Origin: an uncultured Prevotella sp.
GTDB taxonomy: Bacteria > Bacteroidota > Bacteroidia > Bacteroidales > Bacteroidaceae
Length of the DNA stretch: 64,000 nucleotides
Direction of reading: 5' to 3'
Assembly: GCA_900314455.1 (NCBI GenBank)
Contig: OMVI01000040.1
Location: 3,821-67,820, forward strand
Shown piece by piece: positions 14,177-56,836 of the stretch. Within the stretch, counting starts at the first letter, position 1, and every line of letters starts with the position of its first letter. Made by a program: the position numbers and the translations under genes. The notes beneath the pieces were generated by a model. It saw only the letters and a program-made list of their open reading frames with translations, had not been told where the DNA came from and ran no database searches.

Positions 14177-14217
14177 GACTTGTAAATATATTTCTGACAG
14201 CAATTTTATAGGAAACG

Positions 14218-14366
14218 TCTTCGTAACTGATTGATAGTCAACGCTCAATCAAAAGGGCAACTTCCGGCTTGCAAAAGGGCAGGTTCTGCGTTGCGAAAGT
14301 TTAGCTTTTGCAGTCCAGAACCTGCCCTTTTGCAATGCTATTCGGCACCTCCCGCATTCGTGTAAA
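14218..14366 (+). repeat. Dispersed 'IHF-like head + 5 x 22-bp' element, copy A
   Basis: Head CGTAACTGATTGATAGTCA at 14222. Units start at 14249, 14271, 14293, 14315 and 14337. Tail CGTGTAAA at 14359. Confidence 0.8.
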
Positions 14367-14460
14367 ATAAAAGTCATATTCCTTCGGCAAACGTATAGTG
14401 TTTTTATAATACCTTTAAGAAGAAATGAAAGTTTAATTGATGTCAGAGCATACCTACAAA

Positions 14461-14503: not shown

Positions 14504-14592
14504 CGGAAAGTGAGGGATTCAAACCCCCGATACCACGAAACGGGTATACCAGATTTCGAGTCTAGCGCATTCGGTCACTCTGCCAACTTTCC
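14504..14592 (-). tRNA. tRNA-Ser (anticodon CGA)
   Basis: Minus strand: GGAAAGT/ACTTTCC acceptor stem, anticodon arm CTAGA-CTCGAAA-TCTGG, long variable arm, T-arm GGGGG-TTTGAAT-CCCTC, discriminator G, CCA not encoded. TACCTTTG -7 box at 14605-14612. Confidence 0.93.
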
Positions 14593-30835: not shown

Positions 30836-30907
30836 ATGTTTTTCATGGTATTAGATTATTAAGGTTAATAAGGAAGGTTGGTTGTCGTGAGACACCCAAC
30901 CTTTTTT
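30836..30907 (+). ncRNA. Candidate ~70-nt trans-acting small RNA
   Basis: -7-like TAATTTTA at 30824-30831, an unstructured 5' part TTTTTCATGGTATTAGATTATTAAGGTTAA, and a GTGA-capped terminator AAGGTTGGTTGTC-GTGA-GACACCCAACCTT-TTTT. The 5' end is estimated. Confidence 0.6.
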
Positions 30908-31002
30908 AGTGTCCGTTAGTTAAGTCAGATAATGAAAAGAATAGCAAAGATATAATGTTTTTGAAGGTAAATAATTTTTATTTTAGCTTAGCTTAAAATA
31001 TA

Positions 31003-31151
31003 TCTTCGTAACTCATTGATTATCAGTACTCCCGCAAGAGGTCAACTTTGGGCTTCTAAAAGGTCAACTTTGAGGCTGTAAAAGCTAAGGTATTGCAATG
31101 CGAAAGGTCATCTTTTACAAGGCAATACGTCAACTCCCGTTTTGCTGTAAG
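31003..31151 (+). repeat. Dispersed 'IHF-like head + 5 x 22-bp' element, copy B
   Basis: Head CGTAACTCATTGATTATCA at 31007. Units start at 31034, 31056, 31078, 31100 and 31122. Tail GCTGTAAG at 31144. Confidence 0.85.
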
Positions 31152-31339
31152 AATATTTCTTATTTGTTACAGCTGCTGATGTTTTATTTCAGTGAAGTTG
31201 TTCGGACATGATATAGTTATATTGAAAGTAACAATTTTGTAGTATGACCAATCAAAAATCCTATTGATAATTCGTTATATCACTAATTTTCTGTACCTTT
31301 GCACTCAAATAATAATTCTATCAAAAACATATAAAATAT

Positions 31340-44278: not shown

Positions 44279-44334
44279 TATCTTTTAATGGCTATCTGCA
44301 AACGACCAAACTGATACAGAAATAGTAAATAAAG

Positions 44335-44480
44335 TTTACAGCAAGACGGAAGCTAACGTATTAGCTCGCAAAAGCTGACTTTTCGCAACGCAAAAGGTCA
44401 GCTTTTGTCGTTTAAAACCTAAGCTTTTGGAAGCTCAAAGTTGCCCTTTTGCAGCGGCATTGATAATCAACAGGATACGG
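44335..44480 (-). repeat. Dispersed 'IHF-like head + 5 x 22-bp' element, copy C
   Basis: Minus strand: head CGTATCCTGTTGATTATCA from 44479, units from 44452, 44430, 44408, 44386 and 44364, tail GCTGTAAA from 44342. Confidence 0.85.
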
Positions 44481-44576
44481 GGGCGAAAGTACTAATAAGC
44501 GAAAAGGAAAAATCCTGACATTGTAAGCATCATAGTCTTGCATTACTTCGTTCGTTACCTTTATCGTATTTAGTTA

Positions 44577-44764
44577 CATCCGACATTTAGAGTGATAGCT
44601 AACACATGCAGCAATAACCTCGAGAGGTTAAATATCGGTTACCCCACATAAGCGATGTCACATAACCCCAGGCTGCGGTCGTTGCACTCCCTTGCCAGGG
44701 GTTATCGAGAATTAAACTTCTTCGAAGTTAGTGGATGCCATCACTCCGAATGTCGGATGAACCA
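44577..44764. repeat. REP/REPIN-like nested-hairpin element, short (internally deleted) copy
   Basis: Outer IR 44577-44599 / 44737-44759, palindromes AACCTCGAGAGGTT and AACTTCTTCGAAGTT. Closely matches both ends of 56837-57155. Confidence 0.8.
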
Positions 44765-56361: not shown

Positions 56362-56595
56362 ATTTTTGGGTTGTTTTTTCGTGGTGCAAAGGTAATACCA
56401 GAAATCGCAATAAACAAATTTTCGACGTTTGTGAAATGTTAATGGAAGTTAACGAGGCCGCTTCTGTCGATTTCGAAGTCATCCCTTGTGGGCGCTTGTC
56501 TCATCTTAAAAACCGGCAATAAAAGCAAAATCTTGGCATATAGAGGAAGCTTTGTACTGTCAATAGATTTCAATTTATGCTTTCACGGAATAAGT

Positions 56596-56743
56596 CCTTG
56601 TAACTCGTTGATTATCAAAGGTTCCGCAAAAGCATAGCTTTGGGCTTGCAAAAGATGAAGTTTGAGGCAGCAAAAGATGAGGTCTTGGAAGACGAAAGTT
56701 CACCTTTTGGAACGCAAAAGTTTAGGTTCGGGGAAACTGTAAA
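56596..56743 (+). repeat. Dispersed 'IHF-like head + 5 x 22-bp' element, copy D
   Basis: Head TGTAACTCGTTGATTATCA at 56599. Units start at 56626, 56648, 56670, 56692 and 56714. Tail ACTGTAAA at 56736. Confidence 0.85.
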
Positions 56744-56836
56744 GATTTGTTCCACATATTAAGCAGAAAATATAATACAGCATAATGATAGTGAGCATCA
56801 TATTATTTGGCTCATCAAGGATTGGGAATGATATAA

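Follow-up and report, generated by a model that had tools for sequence, protein, structure and literature searches.

Introduction

The window analysed here, a 64,000-nucleotide stretch of DNA from an uncultured Prevotella sp. (NCBI GenBank assembly GCA_900314455.1, contig OMVI01000040.1, positions 3,821 to 67,820), carries four intergenic copies of a dispersed element in which a head resembling an IHF site is followed by a run of phased 22-bp quasi-palindromes. A sequence-only reading of the window, made without database searches, proposed that strict spacing combined with heavy sequence drift reflects selection on geometry, i.e. a cooperative protein-binding or DNA-wrapping platform (for nucleoid organisation, or as a target or substrate of a recombinase), rather than a recent transposon. 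The question raised by this locus is what kind of element it is: a mobile sequence, a local control or RNA element, or a platform on which proteins shape the chromosome.

Anatomy and copy number of the F1 element

A profile search of the whole genome carrying the window (G000; assembly of 2.45 Mb, 87% complete) found 61 full-length copies of the element, designated F1, of about 192 bp each. The iterated profile matched 85 distinct places, 62 of them at E<1e-10, and had no match in the reversed genome, so that the further copies expected by the sequence-only reading are indeed present. All four copies in the window are there, in register and indel-free, and unit 1 lies 27 bp past the head start used in that reading, as it had reported. 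Its bounds for the element were too narrow, as conservation runs from 37 bp upstream of its start through the tail (63 copies), which brings in a terminal box that had been missed and places copy B at 30966-31158. The features are as follows.

30966..31158, + strand: F1 copy B, the whole PINSR-like element, between a 219-aa ORF with the FopS sRNA and aspS
30966..30979, + strand: left terminal box of copy B, 14 bp; the published PINSR-F primer begins with a homologous sequence
31008..31026, + strand: head motif of copy B and homologue of the head of PINSR, whose profile scores highest here (11.7 bits, median -26)
31009..31021, - strand: IHF-consensus-like 13-mer within the head; exact in 28/51 copies, one mismatch in 21/51
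31034..31121, no strand given: the four strong 22-bp units of copy B, each a 19-bp imperfect palindrome plus a 3-bp spacer
31122..31143, + strand: fifth, decayed 22-bp unit of copy B, by slot scores
31146..31159, + strand: right terminal box of copy B, repeating the left box in direct orientation at a distance of 180 bp; not a target-site duplication
14181..14373, + strand: F1 copy A, directly downstream of feoB
44328..44520, - strand: F1 copy C, where dapA and a flavodoxin gene converge
56558..56750, + strand: F1 copy D, flanked by genes for cytochrome c biogenesis and for a TonB-linked outer-membrane protein

Column statistics, computed over the 63 copies with an intact 5' part, show a constant order of modules. 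A 14-bp terminal box is separated by a spacer of low conservation from a 19-bp head, after which come five 22-bp slots and finally a repeat of the box in direct orientation, offset by 180 bp from the first. Sequence-specific invariant positions are present in the unit cores, the head and the boxes. Slots 1-4 score >5 bits in 98-100% of copies and slot 5 in 58%, and the slots flanking the five units do so in just 0-2%, which is where the lattice stops. The earlier count of exactly five units thus holds for four strong ones, the fifth being decayed, while a constant number of units and a constant head-to-unit distance (26 in 57/58 copies) extend beyond the window to the rest of the genome. The reported resemblance of the head to the E. 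coli IHF consensus, on the minus strand and with the consensus as given in the sequence-only reading, extends to 49/51 copies at no more than one mismatch; the terminal boxes do not match this consensus.

Sequence drift among copies is considerable and length drift is slight. Mean pairwise identity is 61% across the 61 copies, 3/1830 pairs reach at least 80% identity, and relative to the model 55/61 copies have no indel, the other six being 1 bp short (five) or 1 bp long (one). Likeness is higher when units of one slot are compared across copies (0.67) than among the units of a single copy (0.59), indicating that F1 spread as a whole element, without minisatellite behaviour; a mobile element would produce this likeness too. 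Most copies (56/63) lie outside called ORFs and 7/63 overlap a mechanically called ORF. Their neighbours occur in all gene orientations, at distances from 0 to >1 kb, and have unrelated functions.

Several observations concern individual loci. One F1 fragment (G000:C94:5037-5082) consists of the head alone and ends within unit 1, and is possibly interrupted or truncated. An Rfam FopS sRNA (window 30836-30910) lies 55 bp upstream of copy B, whose 219-aa neighbour ORF had no relative in a metagenome search, and a tRNA (window 14504-14592) lies 130 bp downstream of copy A. Downstream of copy C, window 44600-44730 is another multicopy sequence, with raised depth and many loose ends in four of four DNA runs. 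The sequencing runs that contain most of the window are labelled as bovine or sheep gut wherever they name a habitat.

A sister family and other arrays on a 22-bp lattice

The weaker matches in the same genome proved to belong to a sister family, F2, with 71 arrays, 59 of four AT-rich units and 12 of three (reversed control, 9 matches), on contigs other than that of the window; an example is C37:54038-54119 (L093:1137-1218). The AT-rich units are embedded between F1-type units, both kinds sharing a single uninterrupted 22-bp lattice, and the F2 consensus has no conserved termini. The exact F2 pattern was found in 1/300 other genomes of the genus (G026). F1 and F2 together make 134 arrays, so the estimate of well over a hundred copies in the sequence-only reading is reached with both families and not with F1 alone (about 63 in 2.45 Mb).

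A motif-free detector, which uses 22-bp periodicity and no sequence motif, recovered 59 F1 arrays, 70 F2 arrays and 9 other matches in G000 at lag 22; lags 20, 21, 23 and 24 yielded no more than one known array. Intergenic arrays at lag 22 numbered 56 in G158, 49 in G274 and 26 in G026, against at most 3, 3 and 6 at other lags. A- and T-tracts are conserved across lineages and unit cores differ; the 22-bp period is kept also in arrays with little tract character. Within G000 the two families occur in blocks (contigs C58, C41, C50, C37 and C120), with 60/80 neighbours of the same type against 40.6 expected, a value reached in 0/5000 shuffles.

Rare 22-bp arrays of other sequence occur in G000 at C96:19569, C23:3872 and C38:1606, the first of them midway through a 26-kb gap separating known arrays, and one F2 array (G000:C32:14872-14953) lies about 120 bp downstream of dnaA. 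The first 400 kb of contig C1 of G158 (L317-L336) contain at least four distinct 22-bp array families alongside PINSR-type copies, and one of these families matches the array preceding the HU-HIG homologue of that genome. G000 also has a REP-like family of GC-rich palindromes (129 matches in about 99 clusters, reversed control 0; e.g. L093:944-995).

Homology to PINSR and distribution in the genus

The sequence-only reading knew of no named element with this architecture, and on this point it has to be corrected, since a described repeat shares both the modules and their order. PINSR, the Prevotella intermedia repeat, is 188 bp long, was reported at 177 and 184 copies, is intergenic and occurs on both strands (Naito et al., PMC4755523). 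The available text of that description gives it no terminal inverted repeats and no coding role, leaves its function unassigned, and names four species as its range (PMC4755523). For comparison we took 30 primer-positive copies out of the 101 matches that G158, G041 and a P. nigrescens record together yielded. These PINSR-type copies consist of a box, a head, four strong and one weak 22-bp unit and a box, in the same order as F1, and the PINSR-F primer begins with the terminal box. Scored along F1, the PINSR box profile is highest at positions -37 and 143 and the head profile at position 5, and the PINSR profile matches 58/63 F1 copies on the same strand (reversed control, 8). Matching box and head profiles make F1 homologous to PINSR; the PINSR primers found no match in G000 (none for the forward primer with as many as 8 mismatches allowed, none for the reverse primer with 2), which makes it a relative of PINSR rather than PINSR itself. 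Judged by its modules, F1 is thus a diverged PINSR homologue, PINSR-like and not PINSR proper.

Both elements are about 190 bp long, intergenic and multicopy (about 180 copies of PINSR and 61 full-length F1), but the right box is inverted in PINSR and direct in F1, the unit cores differ, and the F1 box-to-head spacer is 11 bp longer. The spacers vary between species in a particular way. The head-to-unit distance is 26 in G000, 25 in 20/20 copies of G158, 37 in 9/9 copies of G274 and 26 or 37 in 7/8 copies of G026, and the box-to-head distance is 42 in G000 and 31 in G158, so that in genomes with many copies the differences equal 11 bp, plus or minus 1, or one helical turn. Box orientation also varies: the boxes are direct in G000 and inverted in G158 (PINSR-type), and most G274 copies have both of them reversed.

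A generic three-unit lattice pattern matched 145/300 genomes of the genus, 51 of these at least 20 times by hand count, and found nothing in 155/300; the control for this pattern was unclean, several genomes having control matches and no forward matches, so that genomes scored as zero may carry arrays in another register. The F1 profile matched 37/149 other genomes of the genus and 1/149 other genomes of the order. A phage collection gave no match, and the two 34-bp matches in a plasmid collection are at chance level. The closest other species found (aspS 92% and dapA 89% amino-acid identity) has no array at either gene; together with the 155 genomes lacking a lattice match, this indicates that the system is not universal. 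Its far flanks are non-syntenic, and these array-less loci are therefore not clean empty sites. In 5/27 other genomes (L263, L268, L270, L274 and L288) an array immediately follows dapA, as copy C does in the window, which suggests that some sites are old and shared.

The available text of the PINSR description is silent on a 22-bp lattice, on how copies are spaced, on sister families and on any candidate protein (PMC4755523), and our literature search, which covered few subscription papers, returned no description of a 22-bp lattice, spacing or a protein partner. Within the literature searched, four things are new: the anatomy of 22-bp units, the existence of a sister family, even spacing in each of two species and the association with HU-HIG.

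Even spacing along the chromosome

The 134 arrays of G000 define 80 within-contig gaps with a median of 15 kb, a minimum of 7.6 kb and a CV of 0.37; none (0/80) is under 7.5 kb. Four nulls (uniform placement, and placement in randomly chosen intergenic gaps with a lower size limit of 100, 200 or 300 bp; 2000 draws each) had mean CVs of 0.74-0.89, and the observed value was reached by 0/2000 draws in every one. Large intergenic gaps less than 7.5 kb apart were both occupied in 1/243 pairs against 21 expected, and the exclusion acts between F1 and F2 as well as within each family.

Evenness differs among genomes. In 400 kb of G026, 26 arrays have a minimum gap of 8.1 kb and a CV of 0.38 (0/2000 nulls); by motif-free count the CV is 0.54 (p 0.0055). 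G158 (CV 0.75, p 0.21) and G274 (CV 0.68, p 0.08) are denser, with about half of the large gaps occupied, and they differ significantly from the null in the minimum gap alone (p 0.007 and p 0.001, respectively). G093 and G213 have just 7 and 6 arrays in 200 kb, and the published PINSR positions on the first chromosome of OMA14 give a CV of 1.22 for 120 copies (PMC4755523).

F1 strand relative to local GC skew is 32 to 27, showing none of the replichore bias that the sequence-only reading had raised, and adjacent copies lie on the same strand in 10/24 cases. In G026 (C3, 0.6-1.06 Mb; L132-L151, L237), F2 is concentrated around a switch of GC skew from negative to positive near 0.8 Mb, which is possibly the origin; parB (1.18 Mb) and dnaA (a different contig) lie elsewhere, and a link between F2 and the origin is no more than a lead. 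The F2 domain was not significantly conserved between G000 and G026 (23:6 vs 16:10, p 0.23).

Arrays upstream of HU-HIG genes

HU-HIG proteins are candidate readers of the arrays, through an association that concerns F2 arrays and not F1. G000 has one clear HU-HIG gene (contig C37, 54402-54812), which starts about 280 bp behind an F2 core, besides three classical HU/IHF genes and one fusion, and its homologue in G026 (60% identity) likewise lies behind an F2 array. Among 29 other genomes with the best-scoring homologues, 14 carry a 22-bp array no more than 600 bp upstream of the HU-HIG gene and one carries it just downstream. The control genes dapA and aspS in the same genomes had an upstream array in 1/27 and 4/27 cases, respectively, or 5/54 in total (Fisher p 2e-4, with genomes treated as independent although related); arrays flank both genes in G000, which makes the comparison conservative. 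Metagenome HU-HIG loci, many of them near-duplicates, had an array in 6/35.

The array sequence upstream of HU-HIG genes varies by lineage; that of G158 has its own sequence, with 13 relatives in 400 kb of G158 and none in the other genomes tested. At seven loci (L187, L188, L189, L190, L191, L192 and L198), short arrays of 22-bp palindromes of various sequences lie 110-230 bp upstream of distant HU-HIG homologues, and these are candidate operator/protein pairs. HU-HIG copy number found no support as a predictor of arrays, since matches are fewer where the lattice is abundant: the family occurs in 46/46 genomes tested, with a median of 7 matches (hand-counted, and not copy numbers) in array-rich genomes and 15 in those that the lattice pattern did not match.

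The HU-HIG protein of G000 (136 aa) has a predicted HU/IHF fold (pLDDT 81), with 4FMR, IHF and HU as its best structural matches, and a PDB sequence search with it returned no match. In 4FMR an Ig domain is said to block the clasp (PMC5499826); the 136-aa protein is too short to contain an Ig domain of this type. Burroughs et al. considered HU-HIG proteins unlikely to be sequence-specific regulators (PMC5499826).

Discussion

With moderate confidence, we propose that F1 and F2 arrays are likely candidate docking sites for HU/IHF-family dimers that would bend or wrap DNA and thereby organise chromosomal domains. Such dimers would sit two helical turns apart on the same face of the helix and bend or wrap about 190 bp, creating regularly spaced organisers, about one per 15 kb. 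The F1 head would probably be read by classical HU/IHF, and the AT-rich F2 core probably by the HU-HIG protein of the downstream gene, amounting to autoregulation. The copies may have arisen by ancient duplication of the whole element and then been kept by selection on geometry, with one platform per 10-20 kb probably favoured because nearer platforms would probably be redundant or harmful. The basis of this proposal is the architecture, the homology to PINSR, the fixed geometry, the 11-bp spacer steps, the even spacing and the arrays preceding HU-HIG genes. Counting against it, evenness is weak in the denser G158 and G274, and the system occurs in only part of the genus.

Mu and Tn7 have 22-bp transposase sites, and the main and serious rival, although we rate it as unlikely, is a non-autonomous mini-transposon whose 22-bp units are transposase sites, whose spacing stems from target immunity as in Mu/Tn7, and whose transposase was lost or is unassembled. 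It predicts the same exclusion distance as docking platforms, and Mu cis-immunity, strongest at about 5 kb and decaying across 5-25 kb, agrees with the 7.5-kb exclusion seen here (PMC7350765). The slot-specific signatures of whole-element descent, the inverted boxes of PINSR-type copies and the different positions of arrays in different species would also fit. This rival is nevertheless weakened by the missing duplications and by the changes in box orientation. No target-site duplication was found in 51 F1 copies or in 30 PINSR-type copies, and the boxes are not duplications themselves, as the left and right boxes of one copy were as alike as permuted pairs (0.633 vs 0.627, p 0.23). Terminal inverted repeats are absent from F1, whose boxes are direct, and transposon ends would not tolerate boxes that are direct, inverted or reversed depending on the genome. 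F2 is under the same exclusion despite a consensus lacking conserved termini, and hardly any F1 pairs are close in sequence. PF01797 (Y1_Tnp; RAYT) had 0 matches in the 87%-complete G000, a control having matched in 6/14 genomes. In strain contigs from four studies, copies B and C are bridged intact with few differences, and none of the joints listed, 84 weaker ones aside, skips a copy. Of the MITE and REP/BIME characters with a clear outcome, F1 has the IHF-consensus site and lacks terminal inverted repeats, target-site duplications, a hairpin kept by compensatory change and a RAYT gene in the 87%-complete genome. The view that geometry is under selection and transposition was not recent, put forward from the sequence at the outset, is supported by 61% identity with few indels, no target-site duplication, 11-bp steps and even spacing. 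The recombinase-substrate option offered alongside it is not, as the four tyrosine-recombinase genes found do not adjoin arrays and copies B and C are intact across the four studies.

Gyrase wraps about 130 bp. Curved DNA for topoisomerase loading is an improbable alternative, in which A- and T-tracts with an 11-bp period over 110 bp would be preferred places for gyrase to wrap and would release supercoils at intervals of ~15 kb, with no HU-family protein dedicated to reading them. Arrays do fill 32/74 large convergent gaps, 51/177 tandem and 13/74 divergent ones, tracts are conserved across lineages where unit cores are not, and E. coli BIMEs are candidate supercoiling barriers (PMC6907758). 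Wrapping by gyrase would not account for the invariant positions in unit cores, head and boxes, for arrays that stay 22-bp periodic with little tract character, or for the enrichment of arrays upstream of HU-HIG genes.

That the arrays act locally, as operators, terminators or sRNAs for adjacent genes, we consider quite improbable. Nearly all copies are intergenic, the arrays before HU-HIG genes resemble operators, and in 30 copies the F1 unit block has a better fold than shuffled sequence (median z -3.1). An RNA hairpin, however, is contradicted by the dyads, whose complementarity equals the expectation from column composition at all 9 pairs, and Rfam at its gathering score matched FopS and one tRNA in the window and nothing over the F1 copies, so that the known RNA family which would have overturned the sequence-only reading did not appear. 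Contigs from four metatranscriptome runs barely reach copy B, in one low-depth piece, which weighs neither for nor against an RNA. Neighbours at all orientations and distances, with unrelated functions, also speak against local control, and a regulon would not be expected to space evenly. A neutral minisatellite or REP/RAYT mosaic module, comparable to BrickBuilt in Porphyromonas, is very improbable. A REP-like palindrome does lie within 500 bp of 28/71 F2 arrays, but near just 5/63 F1 copies. The number of units is constant, those of one copy have not been homogenised, a search of G000 for RAYT-family genes had no match, and spacing is non-random.

BIME-1 (RIB/RIP) contains an IHF site, a likeness to F1 as scored above against the consensus of the sequence-only reading. 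E. coli BIME/REP elements (about 600 BIMEs) are also hundreds of intergenic palindromic mosaics that have been proposed as topological-domain barriers (PMC6907758). REPs, however, are GC-rich hairpins tied to RAYT transposase (PMC8049555), whereas the arrays have no covariation, no RAYT found, a fixed unit number, a two-helical-turn period and even spacing, a property on which the available text of that REP paper has nothing (PMC8049555). The BrickBuilt MITE of Porphyromonas gingivalis is, like F1, a dispersed intergenic Bacteroidales element with a leader, a tail and internal 23-nt repeats, but its repeats are 1-23 in number and near-identical and its terminal inverted repeats are IS-like (PMC4596501), whereas F1 combines direct terminal boxes with palindromic 22-bp units that are diverged and constant in number. 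With Mu/Tn7 the arrays share a kilobase exclusion zone around each copy (PMC7350765), and differ in lacking target-site duplications, a consistent end orientation and an identified transposase.

Implications

Returning to docking platforms, a bolder version, which we regard as possible though doubtful, is a sequence-encoded chromosome-folding code in Prevotella. Fast-evolving HU-HIG paralogues would each recognise, and autoregulate through, their own 22-bp-phased array, and some array families would have spread to provide one nucleoprotein anchor per ~15-kb domain, with different families in different regions of the chromosome. If true, this would give a joint function to PINSR and the enigmatic HU-HIG family, and would supply fixed, evenly spaced candidates for bacterial topological-domain barriers. 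The identity of supercoil-domain barriers is an open nucleoid question, and their placement in E. coli has been described as random (PMC6907758). More than 100 fixed sites at near-regular 15-kb intervals, together with a candidate protein family, make this question testable. Should the transposon rival prove true instead, the arrays would be a genome-wide fossil record of target immunity. PINSR, a ten-year-old orphan repeat, also gains an anatomy and a much wider range.
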